A stretch of DNA of 64,000 nt, taken from positions 962-64,961 of the forward strand of contig DASWIG010000349.1 of assembly GCA_036397835.1 (NCBI GenBank), in the 5' to 3' direction. Shown piece after piece: positions 3,462-61,159 of this stretch. Position numbers and translations under genes: made by a program. The stretch is from Thermoanaerobaculia bacterium (lineage in GTDB: Bacteria; Acidobacteriota; Thermoanaerobaculia; Multivoradales; J023). The notes under the pieces were generated by a model. The model saw only the letters and a list, made by a program, of their open reading frames with translations. It was not told the origin of the DNA and did not search any database. The number at the start of each line of letters is the position of its first letter. The stretch's first letter is position 1.

Positions 3462-3514
3462 GGGGCCGCCCCCCGGCCCTGCTATCTTATGTGGAGATCC
3501 CGCCGGACAATGCC

Positions 3515-4933
3515 ATGAACGAGATCAGCTTCTTCAACTCCATGGGCCGCAAGCTCGAGCCCTTCACGCCCCTCGAGCCGGGCAGGGTGCGGCTCTACGC
3601 CTGCGGCCCCACCGTCTACGACCATCCCCACATCGGCAACCACCGCACCTTCCTCTTCGAGGACGTCCTGCGGCGGGGGCTCCTCTTCCTGGGCTACCAG
3701 GTCGAGCAGGTGATGAACGTCACCGATATCGACGACAAGACCATCCGCGGCGCCCAGGAGAAGGGCGTCACCCTCGACGAGTTCACGGCCCCCTTCGTCG
3801 CGTCGTTCTTCGCGGACCTCGACACCCTGCACGTCGAGCGGGCGGAGCACTATCCGCGGGCCACCGAGCACGTGCCGGAGATGATCGCCCTCGTCGAGCG
3901 GCTGCTCGAGCGCGGCTACGCCTACCCCAGCGACGGCTCGGTCTTCTTCCGCATCGCCGCCGACGATGACTACGGCCGCCTCTCGGGCGTCGACCTCGAC
4001 CACGTGCAGCGCGGCGAGCGGGTGGCCCAGGACGAGTACGAGAAGGAGGACGTGCGCGACTTCGCGCTCTGGAAGGCGGCCAAGAACGGCGAGCCGTCCT
4101 GGAGCTCGCCGTGGGGGCCGGGACGCCCGGGGTGGCACGTCGAGTGCTCGGCGATGAGCATGAGGTACCTCGGCGAGAGCTTCGACCTCCACTGCGGCGG
4201 CGTCGACAACATGTTCCCGCACCACGAGAACGAGATCGCCCAGAGCGAGTCGGCCACCGGCAAGCCGCTGGCCCACACCTGGCTGCACGCCGAGCACCTG
4301 CTCGTCGACGGCAGGAAGATGTCGAAGTCGCTGGGCAACCAGTACACGATCAAAGACCTGCTCGTCCGGGAGGCGGAGCCGCGGGCGATGCGCTACCTCT
4401 TCCTGTCGACGCACTACCGCCAGCGGCTCAACTTCACCTTCGACGCCCTGACGGCGGCCGGCGCGGCGCTGAGACGCAGCGACGAGATGCGCTTCCGGCT
4501 CGCCCACGCTACCGAGTCGGAGGAGAGAATCGCCGACGTCGAGGGCGCCGCTCGCCGCCTGCTCGACGGCTTCGCCGCGGCCCTCGCCGACGACCTCAAC
4601 GCGTCGGCGGCCCTCGGCGCCGTCTTCCAATTCGTCAAGGAAATCAACATGGCGGTCGAGGCCGGACGCATCGGCCGCGGCGACCGGCAGCGGGCGTTCG
4701 ACGCCCTGGCCCGCGTCGACCGGGTGCTCGGCGTGCTCGACCCGGCGGCGTGGCAGGAGCCGGCGGCGGCCGGCGGGCCCGGCGACGAGGAGATCGAGCG
4801 CAAGGTCCGCGAGCGCCAGGAAGCGCGGGGGCGGCGCGATTTCGCCGCCGCCGACCGGCTGCGCGACGAGCTGCAGGCGCTGGGCGTGGTGGTGGAGGAC
4901 ACGCCGCAGGGGCCGCGATGGCGCCGCGCCTAG
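3515..4933 (+). CDS. cysS: cysteine--tRNA ligase
   Basis: Class I aaRS HIGN and KMSKS motifs (CGPTVYDHPHIGNHRT, KMSKSLGN). ATG at 3515 (MNEISFFNS); the ORF-track start at 3458 is an upstream extension. Confidence 0.92.
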   Translation: MNEISFFNSMGRKLEPFTPLEPGRVRLYACGPTVYDHPHIGNHRTFLFEDVLRRGLLFLGYQVEQVMNVTDIDDKTIRGAQEKGVTLDEFTAPFVASFFADLDTLHVERAEHYPRATEHVPEMIALVERLLERGYAYPSDGSVFFRIAADDDYGRLSGVDLDHVQRGERVAQDEYEKEDVRDFALWKAAKNGEPSWSSPWGPGRPGWHVECSAMSMRYLGESFDLHCGGVDNMFPHHENEIAQSESATGKPLAHTWLHAEHLLVDGRKMSKSLGNQYTIKDLLVREAEPRAMRYLFLSTHYRQRLNFTFDALTAAGAALRRSDEMRFRLAHATESEERIADVEGAARRLLDGFAAALADDLNASAALGAVFQFVKEINMAVEAGRIGRGDRQRAFDALARVDRVLGVLDPAAWQEPAAAGGPGDEEIERKVRERQEARGRRDFAAADRLRDELQALGVVVEDTPQGPRWRRA

Positions 4934-12482: not shown

Positions 12483-12511
12483 ATCCAAGCAACCAACGGA
12501 GGAGAAAGAGA

Positions 12512-18997: not shown

Positions 18998-19001
<4 letters not shown>
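16563..19001 (-). CDS. FtsX/MacB-like ABC transporter permease (two FtsX domains). No fused or adjacent ATPase.
   Basis: About 812 aa from ATG 19001 (MTGSNLTQALRSLRRDWRVSSLVILIL...). That ATG overlaps the TGA of the upstream megasynthase (ATGA). N-terminal TM, large periplasmic domain, FtsX-type 4-TM bundles. Confidence 0.75.
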
Positions 19002-35809
<16,808 letters not shown>

Positions 35810-38800: not shown

Positions 38801-41800
38801 CGCCACCGCCTGGCGCCAGCCCTTTTCCAGCACTACGGCCACCAGCCGATTCGGGGCCGCGCCCCGCAGCCGCAGCCGATGGGCGAGGTTGTCGGAGCAC
38901 CGATCGAGCTCCCCATAGCTGAGGTGCCGGCCCGCCGCCACCGCCGCCACCGCCTCGGGACGGCGGGCGGCCTGGGCCCGGAACAGCCCGTGCAAGGTCT
39001 GGTCCGCGCTCGCGGCTGCGGGCTCGGGTTGCGGGCTCGCAGTCGCGGGCAAGAGAGACGGCACCGGCTCGTTCCAGGCCCGGGGATCCTCGGCCAGCCG
39101 GCGGAGCCAGCCGCAATACCCGGCGAAGAGCTGGTCGAGCAGACCGGGCGGAAAGGCGTCGTCGACGGCATCCCAGTTGAACGCCAAGCGGTCGTCTCGT
39201 TCCCCCACCTGATGATCCAGCAAGACCTGAGGGGTCTGGCTGATGCTGTAGACCGACTCCCTCTCGATGCCCAGACCGTCCCATCCTCCCCATTCCTCGG
39301 TGCTTTGGTCGATACCCAGGAGACTGGTGAAGACCACCGGCATGATCACCGGCCCGGTCCGCCGCTGGCGGGCGGCCAGCTCCCTCAGCACCTGGACGCC
39401 GCTGAAGTAGCGGTGGTCCAGGTCTCCCCAGAGCTGGCTTTGCAGCCGCCTGGCCTGGGTTTCGAAGGTCCCCGGATCCCCCATCTTCACCTCCAGCAGG
39501 AGCGTGGAGGTGAAATCCCCCACCAGCTCGTTGACCTGCGGATGCATGGGCAGGCGATTGAAGAGGGTCAGGTTGAGGACGAAGTGAGGCTGCCGGCTCC
39601 ATTGGGCCAAGCATTGGGCGAAAACGGCGAGCAGCAGACCGGCGGAGGTGATGCCCGAGCTCTTGCACCGCTCTTTCAATGAGCGCCACAGGTCCGGTCC
39701 GAGCTCGCCGCTCCGGCGGACGAAGCGGGGCCGGCGCAGCTCGGTAAGGGAGGTGACGAGCGGCAGCTCGGGAGCGGAGGGTAAAGCGTCCAGGCGCCGC
39801 AGCCAGTAATCCCGGGAGCGCCGGTAGAGCTCGCCCTCGCGCATGGCCTCCTCGGCCAGGACGTAATCTCGGAAAGACAGCTCCAGGGGCGCGACGGCGG
39901 CGTCGGGGTCGGCGTAGAAGCGGCACAGGTCGCGAAACAGCACCAGGAAGCTCAGCGCGTCCCCCAGCAGCAGGTCGAAGCTGAAGTGGAGCCGGCAACG
40001 GTCTTCCGCGAGCCGGCTGGCCCGCAGCTCGAAGAGCGGCCACTGCTCGCACGGACGGACCTGATGGGACATCTGACCCCGGATCTCCGACAGAGCCCCC
40101 TCCGTCGCCGCCGCTCCCAGGCCGCGCAAGTCCGCCGTCCGGACGTCGTAGGGCGGCACGTCGGGCAAGATCCGCTGGCGGCCGTTCGGGTCGATCACCG
40201 CCCGCAGCATGGGCTGATGCCCGATGAGCTTGCGGAAGGCGGAGGTCAGCCGTTCCAGGTCCAGATTCCGAAAGTCCATCTCCTCGTAGCTGTGGGTCGC
40301 CACCCCACCCAGCTCCATGCCCTCCGACCGGCCGATCCAATAGGCCTGCTGGACGTCCGTCAGGGGGAAGCTCTCCTGCCACCGCTCCGGATCCGGGGTG
40401 ATGGCGGGGAGCTGGGCGACCTCTCCGCCCTCTTGCCGTGCCTCGGACACCAGCTCGGCGAGAGCGGCGACGTGGGCGGACCGGAAGAAATCCTGCAGGC
40501 CGACGTCGACATGGCGGGTCCGGCGGACCTGGGCCATCATCTCCGTGGCCAGGAGAGAATCTCCGCCGAGCTCGAAGAAGTCGTCGTAGACCCCCACCGG
40601 CTCGACGCCCATGAGCCGTTGCCAGAGGCCCACGAGGATCTCCTCCTCGGGATTGCGGGGTGCGGCGTAGGGGGTTTCCAGCTCCGGGCGGCCGTGCTCC
40701 AGCGGTGTGTCCATCCGCTCCGCGGCGCCGGCGGTCGTCGTGGTTTTCGTGCCCTCCGGAAAGCCGGAAATCAGGCCGAACCCGGCGGGGGGATCGATCC
40801 AGAAACGCCGTCGCTGAAAGGGGTAGACCGGCAGGGGCAGGCGCCGGCGGCGCTCTTCGCCGTAGTAGCCGTCCCAGTCGATCTCTACTCCGGCCAGCCA
40901 CAGCCGGCCCAGGGTCGTGAGGAGGAAAGCGTCGTCCGCTTCGTTCCGGTCCGCGGGAGGCAGGGAGGCAAGCGCCACCCGCTCGCCGCCGTAGCCCGGG
41001 TGGCGCCGTGCCAGGCGGGTCAGGGCGTGTCCCGGCCCCACTTCCAGGAGCACCTGGCTCGGCTCGTTCCAGAGCTCGCCGAGGGCGTCGCCGAAGCGCA
41101 CCGGCCGGCGCAGGTGCTCGAGCCAGTAGGCCGGTTCGACGGCGGCTTCGGGCTTCAGCAGCGTGCCGGTGAGGTTGGAGAAAACCAACTCCTGCGGCGG
41201 TTTCAGGGTCACCCGCTCCAGCGCGGCGGCAAAGGGCTCGGACACCGGCTCCATCATCGCCGAGTGGAAGGCGTGGGAGGTATGGAGGAGGCGGCAGGTC
41301 AACCCCTCCTCCTCCAGGCGTTCCCGCCAGGCAGCCACCGCCTTCCGGGACCCCGAGACCACGCAGCGATCCGGACCGTTGACGGCCGCCAGGTCCAGGG
41401 AAGCGCCGAGGCGCTCCCGGACCTGCTCCGCCGGCAGCCGGACGGAGAGCATGGCGCCCTCCTCCAGGCCCTGCATCAGGCGTCCCCGCAAGGCCACCAG
41501 CTCCAGGGCGTCCTCCAAGGAAAAAACTCCCGCCAGGCACGCCGCCACGTATTCCCCGAGGCTGTGGCCTAGCATCGCCTGGGGGCGCACGCCCCAGGAA
41601 AGCCACAACCGGGCGAGGGCGTACTCGAAGGCGAAGAGCGCCGGCTGGACCTCGGCGGTCGCCTCCAGGGGCCGGGCGCCGTCGCCCCGGGACGGGAACA
41701 GGATGGTCAGCAGGTCCGGCTCCAGGTGGGGTTTCAAGATCTCCGCACAGCGGTCCAGCCAGTGGCGGAAGGTGGCTTCCTCCCGGTAGAGGTCCTGGCC

Positions 41801-43437
41801 CATACCGGCGTACTGGCTTCCCTGGCCCGGAAAGAGGAAGGCCACCGGCCGGTCGGTCTCGCGAAAGCAGCGTTGGAGCAACCGCCGGGGATCCCGGTCC
41901 CGGAGCAGGCGCACCGCTTCCCGGCCCTCGCCGGCGAGGAGGGCGCGACGGTGTTGACACGGCTTGCGTCCCACCTGCAGGGTGAAGGCCACGTCCGCCA
42001 GGTCCGACTCCGGATGCTGCTCCAGGTGATCGGCCAGACGGTCCGTGGCCTCCTCCAGAGCCGCGCCGTCGCGGGCTGAGAGCAGGAGCAGCCGCCACCG
42101 CCGGGCCGCCGGATCGCACGGCACGGCGGGCGGGGCCTCCTCCAGCACCGCGTGGGCGTTGGTGCCCCCGATCCCGAAAGAGCTGACCCCGGCGCGCCGC
42201 GGGGTTCCATTCGTATCCCAGTCCCGGAGCCGGACGTTGACGACGAACGGCGTGCGGCGGAAGTCGATCTTCGGATTGGGGGCCTGGAAGTGAAGGCTGG
42301 GGGGGATCTGGCCGTGCTCCAGCATGAGGACGGTCTTGATCAACCCGGCGATTCCGGCGGCGGTGTCCAGGTGACCGATGTTGCTCTTGACCGAGCCCAG
42401 GGCGCAGCGGCCGGGCCCGGCCGCCGGTCCGAAGGCCTGGCGCAGGGCCTCGACTTCGACCGGATCCCCCAGCGCCGTGCCGGTGCCATGGGCTTCGACG
42501 AAAGTGATGCTTTCGGGCGGCACCTCGGCGAGCTCCAGGGCCGCCCGGATCACCCTTCGCTGTCCCTCGATGCTGGGGGCGGTATAACCCACCTTGTGCC
42601 GGCCGTCGTTGTTGATCGCCGTGCCCCGAATCACGGCGTGGATGGTGTCACCGGCCGCCACGGCGTCTTCCAGCCTCTTGAGGGCCACCACCCCCACCCC
42701 ATCTCCCGCCAGGGTGCCCCGGGCCTGGGCGTCGAAAGGCCGGCAGTGACCGTCTGGGGAATGGATCCCTCCCTCTACGTAGCGATAACCCCGCTGGCCG
42801 AGCAACCTCACCGTCACGGCTCCGGCCAGGGCCAGGTCGCTCTCGCCCGCCTGCAAACCCTGGCACGCCAGGTGGACCGCCACCAGCGAGGTGGAGCACG
42901 CGGTCTGTACCGTGACGCTGGGACCGGTCAGGTTGAGCTTGTAGGACGTACGGGTGGCCAGGTGATCCTTTTCGTTGGCCAGGAGCAGTGCGTGCATCCC
43001 CAGGTCCGCCACCAGGCAGGGATGCGCGCTGAGCTGCATGACATAGGTGTTGGTGGAGGCTCCGGCGTAGACCCCGATGGGGCCGGCGAAGCGTTCGGGG
43101 TCGACGCCCGCGTGCTCCAGGGCACTCCAGGCCGTTTCCAGGAAGAGGCGGTGCTGAGGATCGAGGATCTCGGCTTCCCGCGCCGTGAAACCGAAAAAGT
43201 CGGCGTCGAAGAACTCGACGCCGGCCAGGTAGCCGGTCGCCGGGACGTAGCTCGGATCGGCGAGGACCTCGCGGGGCACGTCCGCGAGCAGCTCGTCGAT
43301 GGAAAAACGGCGGATGGATTCCACCCCGGCGCAGAGATTGTGCCAGAAAGCATCGACGTCGTCAGCGCCCGGAAACCGCGCCGCCATCCCGACGACCGCC
43401 ACTTCCAGGCCACTTGCCTGTTTTCCCGGGTCCTTGC

Positions 43438-43441
<4 letters not shown>
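35834..43441 (-). CDS. Hybrid PKS-NRPS, 2535 aa. Domain order KS-AT-ACP-Cy-A-T-C.
   Basis: KS (TACSTS near 42890-42910; HGTGT; NIGH). AT GHSLGE...HAFHS (malonyl-type motif). ACP GGDSL. Heterocyclisation domain with FPLTDVQQAYWIGR (about 40327-40370) and DxxxxDxxS (FDLLLGDALS, about 39948-39980). A domain with DLY..W-type residues at Stachelhaus positions 235/236/239/331, compatible with Cys; A10 NGKVDR. PCP GGQSL. C-terminal C (HHLILDGWS). Start ATG overlaps the upstream stop (ATGA). Confidence 0.88.
39030..40370 (-). other. Heterocyclisation (Cy) domain (approximate)
   Basis: N-terminal Cy signature FPLTDVQQAYWIGR and the DxxxxD motif replacing HHxxxDG. Both were located in the DNA by reverse-complement matching. 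Confidence 0.7.
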
Positions 43442-49502
<6,061 letters not shown>

Positions 49503-49506
<4 letters not shown>

Positions 49507-51593
49507 CGAGCGTCCTCCGGCAAGACCACGTCTTGCTGGCGCACCGAGGCCTGCCGTTCCAGGAAGCTCTCGATCTCCCCCGGTTCGATGCGAAAACCGC
49601 GAATTTTGACTTGCTGATCGATCCGGCCCAGGAACTCGATCTCTCCATCTGCCGCCAATCGGGCCAGATCGCCGGTCCGGTAGAGGCGCTGGTCCGGCAC
49701 CTCTGCAAAGGGGTCGGGGATGAATCTGCTGGCGGTCTGTCGCGGACGTCCCAGGTAGCCACGGCCCACCTGGATTCCTCCGATGTGGAGATGGCCCGCC
49801 ACTCCTATGGGTAGAGCGTGGTCGAGAAGGTGAATGCGGGTATTGAACACCGGCCGCCCGATAGGGACGCTCATCTCGCCGCCGTCCGGAGCACAGGTAT
49901 GGGAGGTGACGTCGATGGCGGCCTCGGTGGGACCGTAGAGATTGTGGAGCTCGGTCTTGAGATGCCCAAATCGTTTGCAGAAAAGACGCTCGTGCTCCGG
50001 CGTCAGGGCCTCGCCGCTGGCGATGATCCGCCGCAGGTTGGTGATGTCGGAAAGGCCCGGCTCCCGGAGAAAGACCCCCAGCATCGACGGCACGAGGTGC
50101 AGGACCGTCACCCGCCGTTCCACGATGAGGGACGCCAGGTAGGCGCTGATCCGGTGTCCCTCCGGTCGGGCCATCACCAGCCGCGCCCCCACGAGAAGAG
50201 GCCAGAAGAGCTCCCACACCGAGACGTCGAAGCTGATCGAAGTCTTTTGCAGCACACGGTCGGCCGGGGTGAGAGGATATGTTTTCTGCATCCAGAAGAG
50301 TCGATTGCAGATCGCCCGATGAGAGTTCATGGTTCCCTTCGGGCGCCCCGTGGAGCCGGAGGTATAAATCATGTAGGCGAGCTGCTCCAGGGCCACAACG
50401 TCTCTCGCGTGTTGTCTGCCTCTGCGGGCGTGTGCCCTCGTCGTCCCACGGAGTACGAGTCTTCCGGTAACCGGATCGCCTTCGACCACCACGGCGGCGC
50501 CGGAATCCCTGAGCATGAAGGCCAATCGTTCCTGGGGATAGGATGGATCGAGAGGTACGTAGGCGCCGCCGGCCTGGAGAATCGCCAAAAGCCCCACCAG
50601 AAGCTCGGGCGACCGCTCCAACGAGATCGCGACCCGTATCTCCGGTCCCACCCCGAGGTCGCGCAATCGCCCTGCCAGGTGGCCCGCCCGAGCTTGGAGC
50701 TCCCCGTAGGTGACAAACTGCTCTCCGATCTCCAGTGCCACCGCGTCCGGAGTCCGTGCGGCCTGTGATTCGAAGAGCTCCGTCAAGCTCTGCGGGCCGG
50801 CAACAGGCACGTCCGTGTCGTTCCATTCCAGCGCCAGTTGATGTTTCTCTGCCGTGCTGATCAGGGAGAGCTCCCCCACTCGCCGTTGCGGATGAGCGCA
50901 AAGCTCCTCCAGCAGACCGGCGAAATGGACCTGCAGGCGGCGCAGCGTCACCCGGTCCCAAAGCTCCGTGCAGTATTCGAAAGCCCCATCCAAGGTGTCC
51001 CCCGACTCGGCCAGGGAAACCTTGAGATCGACGGGCACGGCGCTTGTTTCCGTTTCCAGAAAACGTATCACAAGATCCGGCAGATTGACGTCCTGGAAGG
51101 GAGCGTTGCCCCAGGCGAACGTCACCTGGAAGAGCGGCGAGCGCGATGGGTCCCTCTCCGGCTGCAGGGCGTCCACCAACTTCTCGAAAGGCAGATCCTG
51201 ATAGGCATGAGCCCCAAGGACTCGCTGATTGACCTGAGCGAGCAAGTCCAGGAAGCTCGGATCACGCTTCAGATTTCCGCGGAAAACCAGGTGGTTGACG
51301 AAAGGACCGATCAGGTCCTCGGTCTCCGCGTGAGGTCGATCGACGGGGGGCCTGCCTTTCCGGGCGAACGTCTTGCGAAGAACCTCGTGCCGTTGGACGA
51401 TTTTCCGGAAGCTCATCGCCAGCGCCGCACCGTCCGGGGCTCCGTCGAAACGCAGCACGAAGGGGGTGCTGTAGGCGGCGGTGCTTTGACCCGCCAGCGC
51501 GTCGAGAAACCAAAAGCGCTCCTGAGCCCAGGACAGGGGCAGCTCCCGGTCACGGCGGGCGGCGGCCGCCGAACCGCCGAACAGCTCGCTCAT
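49503..51593 (-). pseudogene. Degenerate C-A remnant gene (696 aa). C domain lacks the HHxxxDG core through an about-190-aa internal deletion. A domain is truncated after the A8 core (no A9/A10, no T). Near-duplicate of the C-A region of the downstream gene.
   Basis: About 90-93% nt identity between 49520-51560 and 44000-46650, compared by eye (for example 49941-50400 vs 44421-44880). Copy lacks the segment equivalent to about 45830-46400. ORF ends ...FLERQASVRQQDVVLPEDAR* whereas the intact copy continues ...VRQAVVTVRSYGTDDRRLVAYV.... ATGA-coupled to the upstream gene and GTGA-coupled to the downstream gene. Confidence 0.6.
49520..51560 (-). repeat. Direct repeat copy B (degenerate C-A coding segment)
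   Basis: Paralogous to 44000..46650 with an internal about-570-nt deletion and 3' truncation. Confidence 0.7.
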
Positions 51594-54500
51594 CGCACGT
51601 CCTCCGACAAGACGACGGGCCGCCGCCGTTGCCGGGCCTGCCGTTGGGCGGTCGCACGCTCCTGCATGCCGTCGAGCTCCGCCTGCTCGGCCTCGGCCTC
51701 GGTCTCGGCCTCGGCGAGGTAGCGTGCCAGGGAGCCGATCGTCGGGTAGGTGAAGAGGTCGACCTGCAACAGGTCGTCCCGGCCGAGCTTTTTTGCCAGT
51801 TCCTCGTGGGCCTGGACCAGCGCCAGGGAATGGCCGCCATGATCGAAGAAGTTGTCGTCAACGCCGAGTTTGTCGACCCGCAGCACGTCCTTCCAGACCT
51901 CGGCGATGGTGCGCTCCAGGCGGTTGCGCGGCGCCACGTACTCGCCCGAGACATCCGAGCGCCGGCTCTCCGGCCGGGGCAGGGCGCGCAGGTCGAGCGC
52001 GCCGCCGGCGGTGCGCGGCAGAAGACCCACCGGCAGCACCGCCTCCGGGCACAGGAAAGGCGGCAGCCGCTGGCGCAGGAATCCCGTGAGCTGGGCGGGT
52101 GAGACCGCGTCGGCGCACACCACGTAGGCCACCAGGCGCTTGTGCCCCGGATCGTCCTCGCGCACGGCGACCTCGACGTCGTCAACCTGCGGATGCGAGC
52201 GCAAGACCGCTTCCACCTCGCCCGGGTCGACGCGGTGCCCTTTGACCAACACCTGCCGGTCGCGGCGGCCGAGCGGCTCCAGGATGCCGTCGTGGCGGTA
52301 GCGGGCCAGGTCGCCGGTGCGGTGCAGCCGGCCGCCCGGCCGGCTGCCGAAGGGATCGGGAGCGAAGCTCGCGGCGGTCTCGCGAGCGTCTCCCATCACG
52401 GCGCGGGCCAGCCCCTCGCCGCCGAGGAGGAGCTCGCCGGTGGCGCCCACCGGGACCGGCTTCAGGGCGTCGTCGAGCAGGTAGACCTGGCGGCCGGCAA
52501 GCGGCCGCACCGTGGCGGTACCGTCGCGGCGGCGCGTCTCGACGCGCGAAAAGGCCGTCGCCTCGGTGCGCCCGTAGACGATGCAGACACGCTCGAGGGT
52601 GGAGCTCGCGAAGAGCTTCCCGAGCAGGGCTTCGGACGGCCGGTCATAGGCGAAGCTCACCGTCCGCAGCGCCGGCGGGAGCGCCTCCAGCCGGAGCAGC
52701 TCGGCCATGGCCGAAGGCGTGGCCGTCACCAACCGGACGTCCGCCGCGGCGGCCAGCCGCGAGGGGCGCAGGACGTCGCCGGCCAGCAGCACCCGGCCGC
52801 CGCGGGCGAGCGGCGCGAACAGCTCGAAGATCGAGACGTCGAGGCTGACCGGCGTCGACGCCAGGCAGCCGCCGAGATCCTCGTCGTCGAAGAGCTCCTG
52901 GGCCGCGGCGAGCCAGGTGGCGAGGGCCCGGTGCGGGATCTCGATCCCCCGGCGCCCGCTCGGTCCGGAAGTGTACAGGACCCAGGCCAACTGCTCGCCC
53001 CGCGGCGGCGGCAGCGGCGCCGCCGGCTCGAAGGGCTCGCGGTCGGCGCGCACGACCCGGCAGCCGGACAGCGTCGGCAGTTGCTCGTGGAGCGGCGCCT
53101 CGCTCACCAGCCAGCGGGCGCCGCTGGCGTCGAGGGCTTCGAGCGGCCGCTCGGTGCTCTCGCCCAGGTCGACCGGCACGCAGGCACCGCCCGCCTTGAG
53201 CACCGCCAGCATGGCGACCACGAGGCGCGGAGTCCGCTCGAGGAAGATCCCCACCCGGTCCTCGGCGGCCAGGCCCAGGCGGCGGAGATGGCCGGCCAGA
53301 CGCGACGAGCGTTCGTCGAGGTCGCCGTAGGTCAGGCTCTCGCCCTCCCACCGCACCGCTTCGCGTCCGGGATGGCGGCGCGCCGCCGCGGCGATCACCT
53401 CCGGCACCGTCCGCGCGGCCGGCGCCGCGACCGCGACGCCGCTCCATTCGCCCACCGACTGCCAGCGCTGCGCCGGGGAGAGCGGCTCGAGATCCCCCAA
53501 CCGGGCGTCCGGCTGGCGGGCCATGGCGTCGAGCAGGCGGCCGAGGTGCTCCAGCCGCTGCCGGACGGCGCAGTCGCTGAAGCGCCCGGTGTCGTAGATC
53601 ATCTTGAGCCGCAGCCCGGGCTTCTCGTAGGCGTGGACCAATAGCGGATAGCCGGGCTGGCGGCGGATCTGCACCGTCATGCTCCGGTATCGCGGGCCCA
53701 GCCAGGGCAGCGACGCGCTCAACGGGTAGCGCTCGAATTGCACCAGACTGTCGAAGAGCGGTTGGCCGGAGGCGATGTCGCTCCACTCCTGGACCTTGGA
53801 GAGCGCCGTGTGCTCGTGGGGGCGCAGTGCCGTCCAGAAGCTGCGCAGCTCTTCCAGGTAGACGCTCAAGGGCTTGCTCGGCTCGGCTATGGCCCGCACG
53901 GCGAGGGTGTTGACCATCGGACCGACGATCGTGTCGCCGCCGGGGAGCGACGCGCGGCACGACTTGACGGCCCCGAAGGCGACGTCGTGACGCCCGCTGT
54001 AGCGCGCCAGCAGCAAGCCCCAGGCGGCCTGGGTCACCGTGTTGAGGCTCAGGCCCTCGCGCTGGCACCTGGCGGCGAGGGCGGCGCCGGTCTCCGGTGA
54101 CAGGAGGAGGTCCATTTCCCGGTGGCCGCGGCTCGGGTCCGCGGCCGAGCTCTCGAGGCCGTCCGCGGCAGGAGTCGGGCTTTCGAAGCCGGCGAAGGCG
54201 GCGCGCCAGAAGGCCTCGTCTCGCGACGCGTCCTGAGCCGCGACGTGCTCGACGTAGTCGCGGAACGGCAGCGACTGCCGGGGCTCGAAGGCGCTGCCCG
54301 CGGCGATCGCCGCGTAGCGGCCGAAGAGGTCGGTGGTGGCGATCGGCACGGAGCGCCCGTCGACCACCGCGTGATGGACGGTGATCAGGATCCGAGACCC
54401 GGACGCGCCGCCGTGGAAGAGCGCCGCGCGGATCAGCGGCGGCCTGCCGAGCACGAAGCCGCGGCGCCGGTCCTCGCGCAGATATCCCTCCAGGCGGATC

Positions 54501-54799
54501 TCCTGCTCCTCGGTGGGCAGCTCGCTCCAATCCTGCGCGGTGAACGGCACCTGCACCGCCGGGGCCACCCACTGCCGGGCCTCGGCGCCGTGCCAGTCAA
54601 AGGCCGTGCGCAGCGCCGGGTGACGCTGGACCATCCAGTCCAGGCAGTCCCGCAGCAGAGGAGCGTCGACTGCCTCGGGAAGGGCGAAGACGAGCTGCCA
54701 GACGTCGACGCCGGAGCCCGGGCGGTTCAGGCTCTGAACGAGCATTCCCTCCTGGATCGGGGACAGCGGATAGCTCTCTTGCGTCATTCGCAACCTCAC
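51590..54799 (-). CDS. NRPS initiation module Cs-A-T (about 1065 aa). N-terminal starter-type condensation domain. A domain with non-canonical core motifs, no A10 lysine. PCP and C-terminal docking-like tail.
   Basis: C: HHAVVDGRS. A: A2 LKAGGACVPVD; A3 YTSGPSGRRGIEI (vs YTSGSTGxPKG); A8 GRRDRQVLVKGHRV; A10 region LPRTAGGALDLRAL (vs NGKVDR in all other A domains of the cluster). PCP: FFDHGGHSLAL. Likely true start ATG at 54787 (MTQESYPLSPIQEGM), 12 nt after the TAA of the upstream gene; the ORF-track start is GTG at 54799. Confidence 0.85.
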   Translation of the reverse strand: MRLRMTQESYPLSPIQEGMLVQSLNRPGSGVDVWQLVFALPEAVDAPLLRDCLDWMVQRHPALRTAFDWHGAEARQWVAPAVQVPFTAQDWSELPTEEQEIRLEGYLREDRRRGFVLGRPPLIRAALFHGGASGSRILITVHHAVVDGRSVPIATTDLFGRYAAIAAGSAFEPRQSLPFRDYVEHVAAQDASRDEAFWRAAFAGFESPTPAADGLESSAADPSRGHREMDLLLSPETGAALAARCQREGLSLNTVTQAAWGLLLARYSGRHDVAFGAVKSCRASLPGGDTIVGPMVNTLAVRAIAEPSKPLSVYLEELRSFWTALRPHEHTALSKVQEWSDIASGQPLFDSLVQFERYPLSASLPWLGPRYRSMTVQIRRQPGYPLLVHAYEKPGLRLKMIYDTGRFSDCAVRQRLEHLGRLLDAMARQPDARLGDLEPLSPAQRWQSVGEWSGVAVAAPAARTVPEVIAAAARRHPGREAVRWEGESLTYGDLDERSSRLAGHLRRLGLAAEDRVGIFLERTPRLVVAMLAVLKAGGACVPVDLGESTERPLEALDASGARWLVSEAPLHEQLPTLSGCRVVRADREPFEPAAPLPPPRGEQLAWVLYTSGPSGRRGIEIPHRALATWLAAAQELFDDEDLGGCLASTPVSLDVSIFELFAPLARGGRVLLAGDVLRPSRLAAAADVRLVTATPSAMAELLRLEALPPALRTVSFAYDRPSEALLGKLFASSTLERVCIVYGRTEATAFSRVETRRRDGTATVRPLAGRQVYLLDDALKPVPVGATGELLLGGEGLARAVMGDARETAASFAPDPFGSRPGGRLHRTGDLARYRHDGILEPLGRRDRQVLVKGHRVDPGEVEAVLRSHPQVDDVEVAVREDDPGHKRLVAYVVCADAVSPAQLTGFLRQRLPPFLCPEAVLPVGLLPRTAGGALDLRALPRPESRRSDVSGEYVAPRNRLERTIAEVWKDVLRVDKLGVDDNFFDHGGHSLALVQAHEELAKKLGRDDLLQVDLFTYPTIGSLARYLAEAETEAEAEQAELDGMQERATAQRQARQRRRPVVLSEDVR

Positions 54800-57370
54800 T
54801 TACGCGGGTGGGTCGGGTGGCGGCGCCTCGGCGGCCGTCAGGTCGACGGCGACGATCCTCAGCTCGCTCGTGTAGGTCTGGCCTTCGGCGTCCGGCAACC
54901 AGGTCTGGTCGGGAGCCGGCAGCATCTCGCTGGCGGAGACCCGCGCCGCCTCGCCGTGCGCTTCGCGGGCGCGGCGGATCTCCTTGGCGAAGATGGCGAC
55001 GTAGAGCGGATTGTCGAAGTCGACGAACATGGGCTTGATCTCGCTCGACGTGCGGGTGAACACGAAGCGCGGCATCCCGTGGCCCGCGGCCCAGCGCCGG
55101 ACTTTGACGAAGAGCTCGAAGGCGTCTTTCTCGTCGGCGAAGGTCAGCTCTGCGCCGGCGAAGCGCCAGGTCTCGCGGGCCATGACCAGGCGGTCGACGG
55201 TGACCCGCGGGGTATGGTCCCAGGCCGGCAGGAGGCGGGTTTCGAGGGCGAGCAGGAGCGAGAGGATCAGCGCGAAGCACTCGACGGGCTCGACCTCCAG
55301 GCGGCCATCGTGGGTGCGCACCCTCAGGCGGCCGTCGCGTCGCTCGAGCTGCAGCTCGGAGAGCTTCAGGACCCGCGCTCCCTCGAGGCCCGCGGCGTCG
55401 GCCGAGGTGACGAGCAGGTAGTCCCGAGGGCTCACCAGGCTCATGTTCGTCCGCGTGGTGGCGCGCGGCACGTTCTTCGGAGTCACCGACAGCACGCGGG
55501 GGACGGTGACGTCGCGCGCCACCGCCCGCACGAGCTCCTCGGGGCGGGGGTGCTGCTCGACGAAGACCGAGGAGTTGAGGGTGTTGGTGGCGACGTGGAG
55601 CTCGCCCATCACGATCTGGAAGTCGCCGCCGGCCAGCGCTTCGACGCTGGGCGAGGAGATCATGAGGTCAGGACTGTGGTGGCAGGCACCCGGCCAGCCG
55701 ATGCCTGAAGTGCGGAAGGCGGCGCGGACCCGGGGGCCCAGCTTCTCGCTCGAGAGCTGCACGCGCCGGCTGCCGGGCCGGATGCCGAGGAGCTCGGCCC
55801 AGAGCTGCTGATAGCTCTCGAGCACCCGGTCGAGGGGTCGGCCGCGGGCGCCGAAGATCAGGTGCTGGGCCTGGAACCAGAAATCGACCATCTCGACCGT
55901 CGACGAGGCGGACCTTTCGGCCAGCTCGAGATGGACCTCCTCGAAAGCCCGCCGGTATTCCTCGGCCACCCGGCAGCTCAGCCAGCGGCTGCTGTCGAGG
56001 ACCAGCTCCAGGGGGGGCGCCAGGGTGGCGAGCAGCTTCTTGCCGAGCCGGACGTCGACGTGGCGCCGGCAATCCTCGTAGACGAGGGTGCGGGCGGCGT
56101 AGGTCCGGCCGGCGGCACGCGTCGGCTCCTGGCCGGTCAGGCGGGTGAAACACTCCTCGAGGCTCTCGAAGGACTCGTCGAGGCGTTGTGGATCGCCGGC
56201 CGCTTCGCCGACCCTGCGCCGGGCGGCATCGAGCTCGTCGAGGTCGGCCAGGGCGCCGTCGCGCAGCTCGAGGTCCAGAATCGCCTCGAGCTGGGCCCTC
56301 AGGGTCCGCTCGGGATGGGCCTCGAGGGGAATCTCGAGGCCCCATGAGAGCACGCCTTCGTCCCGCAGGCGGTCGAAGAGGTCGAGCACCTCCTGCGGAT
56401 CCTCGACGTCGCTCGCGGGGTCCGCCGCCAATTGCTCGGCGATCGTCCGGGCGGGACGGCGGCCGTCGCAGGCGGCCAGCGCCGCCGCTTCCGTCGCGCT
56501 CAGCGGCCGCGGCGACTCGAACGGCCGGCGCACGCTCGTGGCGCCGAGCTTAACGAACGGCAGGATCCGCGGCGGAAGCCAACTGCGCAGCGCCGGATCC
56601 GCCGTCATCCGCTCGGCGAGCGCGTCCACGGTCCAGCCTTCGAAACAGACCTTGCGATCGCAGAGCATCTCGGGGTGGACGCGGACCCGGACCACCTCGT
56701 CCTCCTCGCTCCACCAGGCCCAGCCGACAGGACCGAAGAAGCCGATCGTGTCGTTCTTGGCGCCGTAGCGTTGGAGATAACGCGCCACGAGCTCCTCGCG
56801 GCGGCGATAGGCGGAGCTGCCGAAGTCCTCGCGGCCGGAGGCCAGCAAACGCTCGACGCCGGTGTGGAAGCCGCGCCGGTTCTGCCACAGGACGGCTTCC
56901 TGGAAGCGCGCAGTGGCGGCGATCCGGCGCAGGCTTTGGGTGACCGCGGATCCGGCGCGCTCGAAGGCCTCTCGGAGCTCGCGCAGCGCCGAGTCCCGCT
57001 GCTCCAGCGCCCGCTGATAGGCCTCGACGGCCGAACGGGTGGCGGCGTTGAGCGGCGCGAGGTCTTCGTGGCAGGGGCTCGCGGCCTCGAGACGCCGGCG
57101 CACCCGGCGCAGGGCTCGGCGCTCGGCGTCCGAGCTGCGCCGGATGTCGCCGCGCAGGGCGATGGAGGCCTGGTTGCGGAGCCATTCCAACTCCTCCTCG
57201 CAGAGCAACAAGCGCTGCGCCGCCGCGCCGCAGTCGCCGACCTCGGGGCCGGTCACGGCGGCGACGGGAAATCCCGCGGCGCGCAATGCCGTGCATCGCC
57301 AAAAGGCCCACCGCCCCGCTCCGGGCAGAGACACCAAGTGCCCAACGTCCCCCAAGGCCCAGTCCTCCAC
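54800..57370 (-). CDS. LanB-like protein (lanthipeptide dehydratase N-terminal glutamylation-domain family; PEARL-like standalone architecture without SpaB_C elimination domain), 856 aa
   Basis: Motif ARYLQRYGAKNDTIGFFGPVGWAWW resembles the conserved LanB/Lant_dehydr_N signature (RY..R...TPFGLF[AS]G). The about-850-aa size matches split-LanB/PEARL proteins. No C-terminal eliminase domain, and no small precursor ORF nearby. Immediately followed, co-directionally, by the NRPS genes. Confidence 0.55.
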   Translation of the reverse strand: MEDWALGDVGHLVSLPGAGRWAFWRCTALRAAGFPVAAVTGPEVGDCGAAAQRLLLCEEELEWLRNQASIALRGDIRRSSDAERRALRRVRRRLEAASPCHEDLAPLNAATRSAVEAYQRALEQRDSALRELREAFERAGSAVTQSLRRIAATARFQEAVLWQNRRGFHTGVERLLASGREDFGSSAYRRREELVARYLQRYGAKNDTIGFFGPVGWAWWSEEDEVVRVRVHPEMLCDRKVCFEGWTVDALAERMTADPALRSWLPPRILPFVKLGATSVRRPFESPRPLSATEAAALAACDGRRPARTIAEQLAADPASDVEDPQEVLDLFDRLRDEGVLSWGLEIPLEAHPERTLRAQLEAILDLELRDGALADLDELDAARRRVGEAAGDPQRLDESFESLEECFTRLTGQEPTRAAGRTYAARTLVYEDCRRHVDVRLGKKLLATLAPPLELVLDSSRWLSCRVAEEYRRAFEEVHLELAERSASSTVEMVDFWFQAQHLIFGARGRPLDRVLESYQQLWAELLGIRPGSRRVQLSSEKLGPRVRAAFRTSGIGWPGACHHSPDLMISSPSVEALAGGDFQIVMGELHVATNTLNSSVFVEQHPRPEELVRAVARDVTVPRVLSVTPKNVPRATTRTNMSLVSPRDYLLVTSADAAGLEGARVLKLSELQLERRDGRLRVRTHDGRLEVEPVECFALILSLLLALETRLLPAWDHTPRVTVDRLVMARETWRFAGAELTFADEKDAFELFVKVRRWAAGHGMPRFVFTRTSSEIKPMFVDFDNPLYVAIFAKEIRRAREAHGEAARVSASEMLPAPDQTWLPDAEGQTYTSELRIVAVDLTAAEAPPPDPPA

Positions 57371-57668: not shown

Positions 57669-59231
57669 ATGGCAAAGGTGTCCCGTGAGGTTCTCTTCGA
57701 AGATCTGGATCGGCGGCTTGCCGCGTCAGCAGCTGGCGGCGGGCCGGAGAGGGTCGCCAAGCAAAATGCGCTGGGCAAGCTGACGGCTCGCCAGCGAGTC
57801 GAGGCGCTGCTCGATCCCGGCTCGTTCTTCGAGCTCGACGCGCTGGTGACCCATCAGTGCAAGGACTTCGGCATGGACCGGAAAGTGGTTCCGGGAGACG
57901 GAGTGATCACCGGGCACGGGACGATCGACGGCCGGCGGGTCCACCTCTTCTCGCAGGATTGCACGGTCTTCGGCGGCTCCTTGTCCAGTGCCGGAGCCCG
58001 GAAGATCTGCAAGGTCATCGACCTTGCAGCCGACACCGGGACTCCGCTCATCGGCCTCAACGACGGCGGCGGCGCCCGCATTCAAGAGGGTGTCGCCTCG
58101 CTCGACGGCTATGCGGCGCTGGCCCGGCGGATCGCCCATGCCTCCGGCTGGATTCCGCAGATCTCCGCCATTCTGGGCGCCTGCGCGGGCGGCGCCTCCT
58201 ACACCCCGGCCGGGACGGACTTCCTCTTCATGGTCGAGAAGACGAGCTTCATGTTCGTCACCGGACCCGAGGTGATCCGGCAGGCGACGAGAGAGGAGGT
58301 GACGCAGGAGGCCCTGGGCGGGGCCATGACGCATTTCTCCAAGACCGGCGTCGCTCACGTCAAGACGCCGGACGACGGCACCTGCCTGCAGGAGATCCGA
58401 CGCCTGCTGTCGTATCTGCCCGACAACAGCGGCCAGAAACCGCCCCGACTCGCGGCACCGGCCGAGAACGGGCATGCGGGCGAGGAGCTTGACGAGATCA
58501 TCCCCGAAGATCCGAGCAGCACCTACGACGTCAAGGCGCTGATCAACGGGATCGTCGACGAGGACAGCTTTTTCGAGCTGCAGGCCGCCTGGGCGAAGAA
58601 CATCGTCATCGGCTTGTCGCGGATCGGCGGCTTTGCCGTCGGCATCGTCGCCAACCAGCCCAAGCACCTCGCCGGCGCGCTCGACATCAACGCTTCGCTC
58701 AAAGCGGCGCGGTTCATCCGCTTTTGCGACGCCTTCGAGATCCCGGTGTTCACGATCCTCGACACTCCCGGCTACCTCCCCGGAACCCACCAGGAATACA
58801 ACGGGATCATCCGTCACGGCGCCAAGCTGGGTTTCGCCTACGCCGAAGCGACGACTCCGACCATCACCCTCGTCACTCGCAAGGCCTATGGTGGGTCCTA
58901 TGGCGCGATGGGAAGCAAGCAGATCGGGTGCGACGTCAATCTCGCCTATCCCAGCGCCGAGATCGCGGTCATGGCGCCGGAGAGCTCAGCACGAATCCTT
59001 TACCGCAACGAGCTGACGGCGGCGGGCGAAAACGCCGCGGAGCTCTACAAGCAGCGGGTCGAGGAGCTGCGCTCGATACTCTCGAATCCCTACGTCGCCG
59101 CGGCGCGCGGCGAGATCGACGCGGTGATCAAGCCGCGAGAAACCCGTGGCCACGTCCTGCGAAGCCTCGAGCAACTACGCACCAAGAACGTCGTGAGACG
59201 CTGGAAAAAACACTCGAACATCCCGCTGTGA
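57669..59231 (+). CDS. acyl-CoA carboxylase carboxyltransferase beta subunit (propionyl-/acetyl-CoA carboxylase beta chain family)
   Basis: 520 aa. Carboxyltransferase N/C domains (GGSLSSAGARKICKVIDLA..., GYLPGTHQEYNGIIRHGAKL, AYGGSYGAMG). Confidence 0.85.
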   Translation: MAKVSREVLFEDLDRRLAASAAGGGPERVAKQNALGKLTARQRVEALLDPGSFFELDALVTHQCKDFGMDRKVVPGDGVITGHGTIDGRRVHLFSQDCTVFGGSLSSAGARKICKVIDLAADTGTPLIGLNDGGGARIQEGVASLDGYAALARRIAHASGWIPQISAILGACAGGASYTPAGTDFLFMVEKTSFMFVTGPEVIRQATREEVTQEALGGAMTHFSKTGVAHVKTPDDGTCLQEIRRLLSYLPDNSGQKPPRLAAPAENGHAGEELDEIIPEDPSSTYDVKALINGIVDEDSFFELQAAWAKNIVIGLSRIGGFAVGIVANQPKHLAGALDINASLKAARFIRFCDAFEIPVFTILDTPGYLPGTHQEYNGIIRHGAKLGFAYAEATTPTITLVTRKAYGGSYGAMGSKQIGCDVNLAYPSAEIAVMAPESSARILYRNELTAAGENAAELYKQRVEELRSILSNPYVAAARGEIDAVIKPRETRGHVLRSLEQLRTKNVVRRWKKHSNIPL

Positions 59232-59278: not shown

Positions 59279-61159
59279 TCACATCTCCTCGAGCGCCTCG
59301 ATGGCCAGCAGCCGCAGGCCGTTGCCGACGACGACGCGGAAGGCCGCCAGCAACGCCAGGCGGCTCGAGCGCACCGGCTCGCCCGATTGCAGCACCGGGT
59401 GGTCGTGGTAGAAGGTATTGACGAGCTGCGCCAGCTCGATCAGGTAGCTCGACAGACGCATCGGGTCGTAGCTCTCGGCCGCGTCAGCCACGACCACGGG
59501 GAAGAGCATCACCTGGACGAGGATGCGCCACTCGACGTCCTCGCCGAGGACGAGGGTCTCGGGCGGCTGCCAGTCGCCCGCCTTGCGCAGGATGCTCGAG
59601 ACGCGGGCATAGGCGTACTGCAAGTAGGGGCCGGTCTTGCCCTCGAAGGCGAGCGACGAGGCGGGGTCGAAGTGGATCTCCGTGTCCTTGCCCACGGCGA
59701 GGAAGTGGAACGTCATGGCGGCGAGACCGATCGCCATGGCGCGGCGGTCGAGCTCCTCTCCCTCGAGGTCCGGGAAGCGCTCGCGGATGGCCTCGCGGGC
59801 GAGCTGCCTCATGCCGTCCATCAGGTCGTCGGCGTCCACCACCCGGCCCTCGCGCGACTTCATCTTGCCCTCGGGCAGGTACACCATGCCGTAGCTCAGG
59901 TGATAGAGGCCGTCGGCCCATGGGAACCCCAGGAGCTTCAGGATGGCGAAGAGCTGCTGCATGTAATAGTCCTGCTCGGAGCCGATGCAATACAGGGACC
60001 TGGTGAGCCCGAACTCCTTGAATTTGATCGCGGCGAGATGGATGTCCTGAGTGACGTAGAGGCCGGTGCCGTCGCCGCGCAGCACCGCCTTGTCCTGGAG
60101 CTTGCCGTGCTCGGAGAGCGGCGCGATCACCGCGCCGTTCGGCGCCCGCTTGAAGATCCCTTTCTCCACCGCCGCGAAGATGATCTCCTTGCCGCCTTCG
60201 TAGATCTCGCTTTCGTAATAGTGCTTGTCGAAGTCGAGACCGAGGCGGTCGTAGGTTTCTTTGAAGCCGGCGTAGACCCAGCCGTTCATCCTCTCCCACA
60301 GCGCGCGGGCCTCGGCGTCGCCCGCTTCCCACCGCTTCAGCAGGTCGCGCGCCGCGGCGAGCAGACGCGACGACTCGTTGAAGCGTTCGTCGAGATCCTT
60401 CGCTTCTTTGTCGAGCTCCTGCTCGGCGCGCCACGTTTCTTTTTCTTTCTGCAGCTCCTGCTCGAAGCGCACGTAGAGACGGCCGACGAAGCGGTCGCCT
60501 TTGACTCCGGCGCTCTCGGGCGTCGCGCCTTCGCCCCAGCGCTCGTAGGCGAGCATCGACTTGGCAATGTGGATGCCGCGGTCGTTGACGATCGACGTCT
60601 TCAAGACCCGGGCGCCCTGGGAGGCGAGGAGGTTGGCGACGGCGCGGCCGAGCACGCCGTTGCGCAGGTGGCCGAGGTGGAGCGGCTTGTTGGTGTTGGG
60701 CGAGACGTACTCCATCATCACCACCTCGCCGGCCTCGCGGTCGGAATCGCCGTAGGCGTCGCCCGCTTCGCGGGCCTCGGCGACCGCGCGCGGCACGACC
60801 GCGTCGCGGTCGAGCTCGACGTTCAGGTAGGGGCCGGCGGCGACGGCGCGGGCGATCCAGGCGTCGGGCGGGATCGCCGCCGCCATCTCTTTGGCGATCT
60901 CGGCGGGGTTCTTCTTCCACTGGCGCGCCAGCTCGAAGCAGCGGAACGACAGGTCGCTGCCGGTGTGGGACGGCGCCGGGGTGAGGGCCACGTCCTCCAC
61001 GGCCACGGCGCCGCGCGAGGCGCCGGCGATCGCCGCGGCAACGTGGCCGTACACGTCGGCGAGCGTGCGGCCGACGACGAAGTCATGGGTCAGGGCTTTC
61101 ATGGCGGCAGGTTCCTTCCAGGAGCTGCGCAATATACCAGGTACGACGTCTCGTGACAT
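59279..61159 (-). CDS. argS: arginine--tRNA ligase
   Basis: Class I HIGH-like (PNTNKPLHLGHLRN) and C-terminal DALR anticodon-binding region. Start may be the internal ATG at 61102 (MKALTHDFV...). Confidence 0.85.
   Translation of the reverse strand: MSRDVVPGILRSSWKEPAAMKALTHDFVVGRTLADVYGHVAAAIAGASRGAVAVEDVALTPAPSHTGSDLSFRCFELARQWKKNPAEIAKEMAAAIPPDAWIARAVAAGPYLNVELDRDAVVPRAVAEAREAGDAYGDSDREAGEVVMMEYVSPNTNKPLHLGHLRNGVLGRAVANLLASQGARVLKTSIVNDRGIHIAKSMLAYERWGEGATPESAGVKGDRFVGRLYVRFEQELQKEKETWRAEQELDKEAKDLDERFNESSRLLAAARDLLKRWEAGDAEARALWERMNGWVYAGFKETYDRLGLDFDKHYYESEIYEGGKEIIFAAVEKGIFKRAPNGAVIAPLSEHGKLQDKAVLRGDGTGLYVTQDIHLAAIKFKEFGLTRSLYCIGSEQDYYMQQLFAILKLLGFPWADGLYHLSYGMVYLPEGKMKSREGRVVDADDLMDGMRQLAREAIRERFPDLEGEELDRRAMAIGLAAMTFHFLAVGKDTEIHFDPASSLAFEGKTGPYLQYAYARVSSILRKAGDWQPPETLVLGEDVEWRILVQVMLFPVVVADAAESYDPMRLSSYLIELAQLVNTFYHDHPVLQSGEPVRSSRLALLAAFRVVVGNGLRLLAIEALEEM

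Follow-up and report, generated by a model that had tools for sequence, protein, structure and literature searches.

The window analysed here, a stretch of 64,000 nucleotides on contig DASWIG010000349.1 of a Thermoanaerobaculia bacterium, carries a hybrid nonribosomal peptide synthetase-polyketide synthase (NRPS-PKS) cluster whose first NRPS module, by gene order, is a condensation-adenylation-thiolation protein with a degenerate adenylation domain. The module is written C-A*-T below, with C, A, and T for the three domain types and A* for the degenerate domain. Directly upstream of it lies the gene of a LanB-like protein that resembles the peptide aminoacyl-tRNA ligases (PEARLs). The region has a GC content of ~70%, with every gene of interest on the minus strand (Table 1). 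Comparison of the sequences indicates that A* is very probably adenylation-dead, that the C and T domains around it are probably still functional, and, far more tentatively, that the carrier is primed in trans with the LanB-like protein as partner.

The first-pass annotation of this DNA had placed the module right after the LanB-like gene, and the stop codon of that gene does directly abut the C-A*-T reading frame. Translation of positions 51590-54799 on the minus strand gives 1069 amino acids, with GTG at 54799 as a possible start; the ATG at 54787, which lies 8 nucleotides downstream of a GAGG, is probably where translation begins. The protein differs at only 2 residues from P0001, which represents the same locus. 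The gene is found intact and in the same gene order in three independent metagenome assemblies, and their agreement rules out an assembly artefact.

A* retains an AMP-binding fold, as seen from its matches to PF00501 (E 2.1e-53) and PF13193 (E 2.8e-10) and from its full-length alignment to the A domains of LgrA. The window copy also keeps the normal domain length, cores A1 and A2, the A4 Asp, the TE of A5 (which reads YGRTE), the TGD of A7, and the GRxD hinge. The annotation had described the A10 lysine as missing and the A3 and A8 cores as divergent; every string that it quoted is present at its place (the coordinates were checked), and its span of 51950-53450 corresponds to the A domain. The A3 core aligns as YTSGPSGR-RG against the canonical (S/T)GT(T/S)GxPKG, so that the P-loop is shortened and lacks its lysine. 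The A8 core reads GRRDRQVLVKG, in which QVLVKG stands against the canonical QVKIRG and a leucine takes the place of the lysine, and A10 reads GGALDL, with alanine (Ala934) at the lysine position and leucine at that of the arginine. In GrsA, the two corresponding lysines serve different steps, K434 stabilising the thiolation half-reaction and K517 the adenylation half-reaction (PMC11253843). The same defects emerge from the HMMER alignment to LgrA and from aligning A* by MAFFT with every A domain in the window.

A lysine near A10 that might compensate was sought by multiple alignment, as the annotation had proposed. None lies near A10 of A*, and no lysine is conserved across the C-terminal (A-sub) region in the alignments of the module family, so that a compensating lysine is absent. 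The annotation had also contrasted A* with a uniform NGK(V/L/I)DR in six other A domains of the cluster. The lysine is present in all six, but the motif is not uniform: the sequences are TGKIDR, SGKLDR, SGKVDR, NGKVDR, NGKVDR, and SGKVDQ, which together fit xGK[VLI]D[RQ] and contain a literal NGK in only two cases. Its inventory of six others was moreover incomplete, as a seventh A domain, truncated after A8, sits in the orphan gene discussed below. Scoring against the NCBIfam adenylation-domain model TIGR01733, which has a cut-off of 317.4 bits, places A* below that threshold at 285.1 bits and the six other complete A domains above it at 339.5-425.9 bits.

The defects recur in the relatives of the module. 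A family search covering 5.8 billion proteins returned three related clusters only, namely P0001, P0003 (46% identical), and P0014 (a 794-aa protein), and beyond these the scores drop from ~1,940 to ~1,140 bits. Together with a second copy on the contig of P0003 (L001), this gives four family copies: the window, P0003, the second L001 copy, and P0014. In each of the four the A8 lysine is replaced by leucine, and the A10 lysine position holds Ala in the window and the second L001 copy and Glu in P0003 and P0014. Both L001 copies have in addition lost the P-loop and the Asp of FDxS and show a 26-residue gap between A6 and A7, and P0014 lacks A1-A5 altogether (~330 residues). Accordingly, TIGR01733 gives P0003 194.5 bits and finds no match in P0014. 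The related proteins are labelled Pyrinomonadaceae, Longimicrobium, or Acidobacteriota. An HMMER search with the C domain gave a top 150 made up of giant multi-C NRPSs that rank through summed scores, with no new family member among them, and no family member emerged from species-representative genomes scanned with patterns that are generic NRPS motifs, chosen from the family alignment, the best match being 40% identical.

Relatives that share the same C, T, and LanB context have thus lost the P-loop or the whole of A1-A5, and adenylation is therefore not the function under selection. The loss in A* is a family trait and not a one-off mutation. The earlier suggestion that the domain is adenylation-deficient is strongly supported, with the P-loop, A8, and A10 lysines missing in all four copies and larger core losses in the relatives. 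Across 80 unrelated NRPS loci, 6 of 263 A domains (2.3%) have a lysine-less A10, which is thus uncommon but not extraordinary by itself. It could be supposed that A* still adenylates in a non-canonical way, with other residues replacing the missing lysines. The cores retained in the window copy would allow this, as would the ratio of nonsynonymous to synonymous substitution rates (dN/dS) of 0.34, which reflects some constraint; nevertheless, the idea is very improbable given that all three lysines are missing with no conserved A-sub lysine, that relatives have shed the P-loop or A1-A5, and that the score falls below the TIGR01733 cut-off.

Table 1. Coordinates of the features discussed in the text (AT, acyltransferase; Cy, heterocyclisation; KR, ketoreductase; KS, ketosynthase; TE, thioesterase).
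Feature	Position	Strand	Description
LanB-like, putative PEARL-type gene	54800..57370	-	856 aa; single domain PF04738 (Lant_dehydr_N), glutamylation-type
SPD568LMI ... GE590LH592VA	55589..55675	-	Pattern and spacing as in the PEARL ATP/Mg site (TglB Asp542, Glu564, conserved His)
TSE836LR838IV	54851..54871	-	ExR motif as TglB Glu801/Arg803
C-A*-T gene	51590..54787	-	Pfam Condensation, AMP-binding, AMP-binding_C, PP-binding; first NRPS module by gene order
Condensation domain	53465..54787	-	N-terminal; intact HHAVVDG at 54356-54376; not ureido-type EHHxxHDG
Degenerate adenylation domain A*	51950..53450	-	Residues ~460-950; from alignments and TIGR01733 score
A3/P-loop remnant YTSGPSGRRGIEI	52937..52975	-	One-residue deletion, Lys lost
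A8 remnant GRRDRQVLVKGHRV	52229..52270	-	GRxD hinge kept; Leu at thiolation-state Lys (GrsA K434 equivalent)
A10 remnant LPRTAGGALDLRAL	51980..52021	-	Ala934 (51998-52000) at catalytic Lys position (GrsA K517)
Thiolation (carrier) domain	51710..51922	-	Phosphopantetheine-attachment Ser991 (51827-51829) intact in FFDHGGHSL
Orphan gene, C-A*-T/PKS interval	49503..51593	-	696 aa; internally deleted C and A cut after A8; no T
KS-AT-T-C-A-T gene	43438..49506	-	KS active-site Cys present
KS-AT-T-Cy-A-T-C gene	35834..43441	-	First 'C' is a heterocyclisation domain
A-T-C-A-T-C-A-T-KS-AT-KR-T-C-A-T-TE gene	18998..35809	-	End of assembly line
MacB/FtsX-type permease gene	16563..19025	-	3' of TE-containing synthetase gene
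Acyl-CoA carboxyltransferase gene (mmdA/propionyl-CoA carboxylase beta-like)	57669..59231	+	Divergent, directly upstream of LanB-like gene
Arginyl-tRNA synthetase gene	59279..61159	-	Two genes upstream of LanB-like gene; passes equivalog cut-off
Cysteinyl-tRNA synthetase gene	3458..4933	+	Far end of window

The C and T domains show a different pattern from A*. The C motif HHxxxDGRS and the T motif GGHSL (GGHSLALV) are conserved throughout the family, in lineages that are only 47% identical. The window C domain shares 47-50% identity with the family copies and 34-40% with generic C domains, and its T domain, which is of the NRPS type, shares 56-74% with the family copies. Between the two L001 copies, dN/dS is 0.17 for C, 0.16 for T, 0.34 for the A* core, 0.32 for A-sub, and 0.28 for the LanB-like protein. 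These values indicate that the module is maintained and that A* is relaxed, not neutral; the remaining constraint on A* fits a structural role. The C and T domains would on these grounds probably have kept their function.

Other signs of decay lie next to the module. Gene calls in independent assemblies give the orphan gene between C-A*-T and the first PKS gene a length of 696-699 aa. Its C domain has ~600 bp deleted, with HHxxxDG gone, and its A domain ends after A8, without A9 and A10. The gene is a DNA duplicate, at 85-91% identity, of the C-A in the last module of the next gene (compared with 43438-46650), and both the orphan C-A and its duplicate are lower in GC (0.64-0.65 vs 0.71-0.73). 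The gene junction '...VVL(S/P)ED(V/A)R* / (A/G)TGAGCGA' is present in duplicate at the orphan gene, which indicates an insertion by recombination. The truncated neighbour and these low-GC recombination patches, together with the ~2% of NRPS A domains in general that are degenerate, could suggest that the whole C-A*-T is an evolutionary relic, skipped or unused by the assembly line. This is improbable. The GC content at third codon positions is 0.92 in the C-A*-T gene, the reading frame is intact in three assemblies, and C and T evolve at a dN/dS of 0.16-0.17 with the catalytic His and Ser invariant across the family. Furthermore, the active-site Cys of the downstream KS is normal, and no carrier other than that of C-A*-T lies upstream of this KS as a source of the starter.

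The LanB-like protein matches PF04738 with an E-value of 6.5e-36 over profile positions 3-648 of 649. Its AlphaFold2 model has a predicted local distance difference test (pLDDT) score of 92.6, and in Foldseek the model matches best the glutamylation domain of TbtB (E 1.9e-27, template modelling scores 0.66/0.70), followed by MibB, GodF, MadB, and NisB. A search of the protein's profile against the PDB gave TbtB (1.6e-9) as the only significant match; a single-sequence search against the PDB gave none, so the profile and the structure model were needed. An elimination domain (PF14028) was not detected in the open reading frames of the window that were scanned.

PEARLs differ from dehydratases at two positions, Asp542 and Arg803 in TglB, which are Tyr and Leu in the split LanBs, and Glu564, the conserved His, and Glu801 of TglB are ATP/Mg ligands (PMC11117183, PMC11962472). 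Residues that match these by pattern and spacing are present in the window protein, the intervals being 22 and ~246 residues as compared with 22 and 237 in TglB. D568, E590, H592, E836, and R838 are invariant in 59 homologues of 39-55% identity, and Y198, R201, and R427 resemble Y205, R208, and R429 of BhaB7, which contact the 3'-CCA. A class I lanthipeptide or split LanB dehydratase was considered and rejected, as no PF14028 was found in the frames scanned and, by pattern and spacing, Arg838 and Asp568 stand where Leu and Tyr would be. We conclude from these motifs that the protein is a putative PEARL-type enzyme and not a dehydratase. Residues 268-343 (56342-56569, minus strand) are similar to PqqD and RiPP (ribosomally synthesised and post-translationally modified peptide) recognition elements, with PDB 5SXY at E 0.011 and a weak Foldseek match to the recognition-element protein TbiB1; a peptide-like partner for this segment is possible.

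A LanB-like gene lies immediately upstream of all four family copies of C-A*-T: in the window, at L003 (with a 4-nucleotide overlap), and twice at L001. The window LanB shares 49-51% identity with its family counterparts. At L001 the order is LanB, C-A*-T, LanB, C-A*-T, PKS, so that the pair has been duplicated as a unit (3209-14679); amino acid identity between the tandem copies is ~79-80% for C-A*-T and 67% for LanB. The break in the second C-A*-T there reflects a stretch of N in the contig and no true frameshift.

Metagenomes scanned with the LanB alignment gave 80 loci, mostly from soil, at 37-49% identity, to which the comparison was extended with domain maps and Pfam checks. The domain maps are varied, and many of the LanB-like genes follow complete modules or stand in tandem arrays of two or three. 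A carrier that has no working A in cis is nonetheless found beside a LanB-like gene in several independent architectures. In two loci, L168 and L170, A-T is followed by LanB, a stand-alone T, and KS; in L168 the free T nearly duplicates the terminal T of the A-T protein before it. The order C, LanB, T occurs in L150 and LanB, T in L146. A-less C-T modules lie beside LanB-like genes in L098, L102, L116, L120, and L158/160, a C-Asub*-T-TE protein in L137/139, and A*-T-TE followed by LanB in L124. The L143 protein (6629-12559) is a fusion in which a complete C-A-T, whose A10 is canonical (NGKVDR), continues at its C-terminus into a LanB-like domain, such that the PEARL-like domain physically adjoins a carrier. 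Modules deficient in A make up 8 of the 39 near LanB genes and 9 of the 235 in control loci (odds ratio 6.5, p 8e-4), and the excess persists without the query's family (6/37, p 0.008). A corresponding enrichment of lysine-less A10 alone was tried and rejected, the broader class of A-deficient modules being the only one enriched.

The explanation favoured here is that A* would be a catalytically dead relic, kept as a structural spacer in a C-A*-T that still works. An A* that can neither form an aminoacyl-adenylate nor load its own carrier would leave Ser991 to be primed in trans, and the partner for this step would be the co-transcribed LanB-like, PEARL-type ligase. Characterised PEARLs use ATP to phosphorylate a carboxylate, which is then coupled to the amino group of an aminoacyl-tRNA. 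The LanB-like protein would likewise carry out ATP-dependent activation of a carboxylate and couple it to an aminoacyl-tRNA. The (acyl-)aminoacyl group would then be captured as a thioester on Ser991 of C-A*-T, possibly helped by the conserved C domain, and the bound unit would move on to the KS encoded by the following gene, which is the presumed acceptor for this carrier.

Taken as a whole, with a dead A*, a working C-T, and PEARL-type priming in trans, this explanation is given a chance just short of even. Priming of C-A*-T through the PEARL-like enzyme, considered on its own, is a real possibility that is put somewhat below even; what we infer is that priming occurs in trans, that this enzyme performs it, and how the group reaches the carrier thiol. 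That PEARL-type LanB-like enzymes in general charge NRPS/PKS carriers independently of adenylation, by forming an acyl-phosphate and/or using aminoacyl-tRNA and passing the (acyl-)aminoacyl group to the phosphopantetheine thiol, is a speculative proposal that is rather unlikely to hold. The same doubt attaches to the notion that a 'PEARL + (C)-T' unit is a new kind of tRNA-dependent module, of which a decayed, truncated, or absent A would be the signature.

Several observations weigh against PEARL-type priming. The equivalences with TglB and BhaB7 residues rest on pattern, spacing, and invariance rather than direct alignment. PEARL chemistry requires a carboxylate as substrate, its usual last step is to hydrolyse the tRNA ester, and no precedent for LanB/PEARL transfer to a phosphopantetheine thiol, or for carrier charging by such enzymes, was found in the literature searched. 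For the role of a conserved C domain at the start of the line the proposal offers no explanation. The enrichment statistics for A-deficient modules ignore the relatedness of the loci, and without the query family a lysine-less A10 alone is no more frequent near LanB genes than elsewhere (2/61 vs 6/263). P0383, the LanB nearest to that of the window (55% identity), precedes a family-type C and an A whose P-loop is intact, YTSGSTGRPKA, on a contig that ends before A10. By C-domain identity this locus is basal to the dead-A family. The intact P-loop implies that the partnership between LanB and C-A-T predates the loss of A and needs no dead A. Finally, in the wider clade (37-45% identity) the majority of the LanB-like genes have no A-deficient neighbour, an arrangement that fits the extension of a free carboxylate as by SnaE, a LanB-like enzyme encoded in another NRPS-PKS cluster.

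These points also decide what remains of the delivery in trans that the first-pass annotation had raised. Delivery by a LanB/PEARL-like enzyme is a sensible hypothesis, though probably in need of modification; it has circumstantial backing in the adjacency, the duplication, the A-less architectures, and the enrichment, and is set back by P0383 and by the neighbours in the wider clade. The simple version, an aminoacyl transfer from tRNA to the carrier thiol, is probably not the chemistry: the putative residues for ATP and carboxylate activation are present, and an apparently intact ATP site makes bare transfer improbable.

The main competing explanation accepts that A* is dead but assigns the loading of the T domain in trans to a different A domain of the assembly line. 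The LanB-like enzyme would act elsewhere in the manner of SnaE and add an amino acid from aminoacyl-tRNA to a free carboxylate of the intermediate or product. SnaE, the only one characterised among the LanB-like proteins reported in ~2,000 NRPS/PKS clusters (PMC10769383), extends a free carboxylate, and the putative PEARL ATP-site residues are intact in the window protein. Trans-iterative loading by A domains is documented, as in the A-less capreomycin module CmnI, which CmnA-A1 loads (PMC12400406). The LanB of L167 is partnered with a module of intact P-loop, and many tandem LanB-like genes have no A-deficient module nearby. Against this stands the search for a ureido-forming C domain, which would make the free carboxylate. 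The C-domain motifs of the cluster are VHHAVVDG, IHHIVSDG, AHHLILDG, LHHTITDG, LHHVLADA, and FHHLVVDG, in addition to one Cy domain, and a motif check of all C domains of the cluster found EHHxxHDG in none. A ureido (SnaA-like) explanation is rejected on these motifs, and their absence weakens the SnaE-like alternative. The window also contains no free-standing complete A domain, and the A domain of the orphan gene, without A9-A10 and absent from the relatives, is an unlikely trans-loader. Loading by another A domain would further leave unexplained the duplication of LanB/C-A*-T as a unit, the bare T domains between LanB and KS, and the enrichment of A-deficient modules near LanB genes. On balance it is unlikely, while still deserving serious weight.

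A further possibility is that the carrier receives a group that is not an amino acid, such as a malonyl-type dicarboxylate from an acyltransferase, and that the PEARL-like enzyme amidates its free carboxylate with an aminoacyl-tRNA. This would amount to chain reversal without a ureido group and would make an A domain unnecessary. It would supply the free carboxylate that PEARL chemistry needs, it accords with C-A*-T feeding directly into a KS, and SnaE may act on carrier-bound intermediates; a carboxyltransferase gene also lies divergently upstream of LanB in the window and in L001. Nonetheless, this purely inferential model gives no role to a conserved C domain under purifying selection, no gene for a trans-acting AT is seen, and the T domain is of the NRPS type, so that malonyl-type priming is a decidedly weak candidate.

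The remainder of the assembly line is listed in Table 1. The Cy domain of the 35834-43441 protein covers residues ~1020-1440, with motifs FPLTDVQQAYWIGR and DLLLGD. In the last synthetase (18998-35809), HHVLADA replaces HHxxxDG in the second C domain, at residue 1826. A MacB/FtsX-type permease gene recurs beside the LanB-like genes of NRPS clusters at many loci (L087-L171), often directly upstream. The carboxyltransferase arrangement of the window is also seen at L001 1460-3025, in a 46-51% identical relative. The gene for arginyl-tRNA synthetase (argS) was considered as a pathway-specific supplier and set aside, as it is not conserved beside the L001 cluster and passes the housekeeping equivalog cut-off; its position is treated as coincidental. 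Both it and the cysteinyl-tRNA synthetase gene are probably housekeeping genes, and there is no dedicated tRNA gene within the window. An asparagine-synthase-like gene and a TauD-family dioxygenase gene near the cluster end (9566-12482, plus strand) may be tailoring genes, and a fragment of a YhgA-like transposase lies at the window start (2-670, plus strand).

Neither degenerate A domains nor PEARL-like enzymes within NRPS-PKS clusters are new; their pairing here could point to a new logic of carrier loading. If the pairing is functional, it would offer a second route for aminoacyl-tRNA or acyl-phosphate chemistry into thioester assembly lines, explain a class of 'broken' modules that A-domain predictors of the antiSMASH type mis-call, and give engineers a way to load carriers with tRNA-borne amino acids. 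If it is not, the family still provides a clear case of an A domain decaying to a scaffold while C and T remain under selection.

Among known systems, PacB of the pacidamycin pathway uses aminoacyl-tRNA in an NRPS context, and Mocibob et al. in 2010 reportedly described enzymes resembling aminoacyl-tRNA synthetases that aminoacylate carrier proteins. PacB and such loaders link amino acid activation of the translation type to carrier-protein chemistry. None of these enzymes, which belong to Fem/GNAT-like and SerRS-like families, is known to be of the LanB/PEARL type or paired with a decayed A domain.

The best structural match of the window protein is TbtB, the split LanB glutamylation domain of the thiomuracin pathway. 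TbtB has no need of ATP, carries Leu and Tyr at the PEARL positions Arg803 and Asp542, and works with a separate elimination protein, whereas the window protein has Arg838 and Asp568 at what appear to be these positions. With the canonical PEARLs (TglB, BhaB, and the AmmB enzymes) the window protein shares the fold class and the lack of an elimination domain; by motif and spacing it also appears to have their Asp...ExH...ExR pattern, and the Tyr and Arg proposed for 3'-CCA binding appear conserved in it. Canonical PEARLs, however, lengthen a ribosomal scaffold peptide at its C-terminal end and afterwards cleave the tRNA ester by hydrolysis, while the partner in the window is an NRPS carrier module.

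Modules that lack an A domain or hold an inactive one and are loaded in trans include viomycin VioI, yersiniabactin HMWP1, and syringomycin SyrE/SyrB1. C-A*-T resembles these, and also CmnI (PMC12400406), in that the carrier has no working A in cis. The carriers of those known modules are charged by a further adenylating enzyme, whereas C-A*-T has a putative PEARL-type enzyme as its conserved partner and no spare complete A is present.

The closest counterpart is SnaE, from the sna cluster for threopeptin in Stackebrandtia nassauensis (Yu & van der Donk; PMC10769383, PMC11212132). It shares with the window protein a stand-alone LanB-like form in which the glutamylation-type domain is the only one, and its gene likewise belongs to a hybrid NRPS-PKS cluster. 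That cluster contains no RiPP precursor, and SnaE is proposed to form an amide from ATP and aminoacyl-tRNA outside thioester logic. Unlike anything seen here, its companion SnaA is an A-T-C-A-T protein in which both A domains are active and the C domain is of the ureido-forming type (EHHxxHDG), which makes the free carboxylate for SnaE. The LanB-like gene of the window, in contrast to SnaE, directly precedes a C-A*-T with what appears to be a dead A domain, and this pair is conserved across the family and has been duplicated as a unit.

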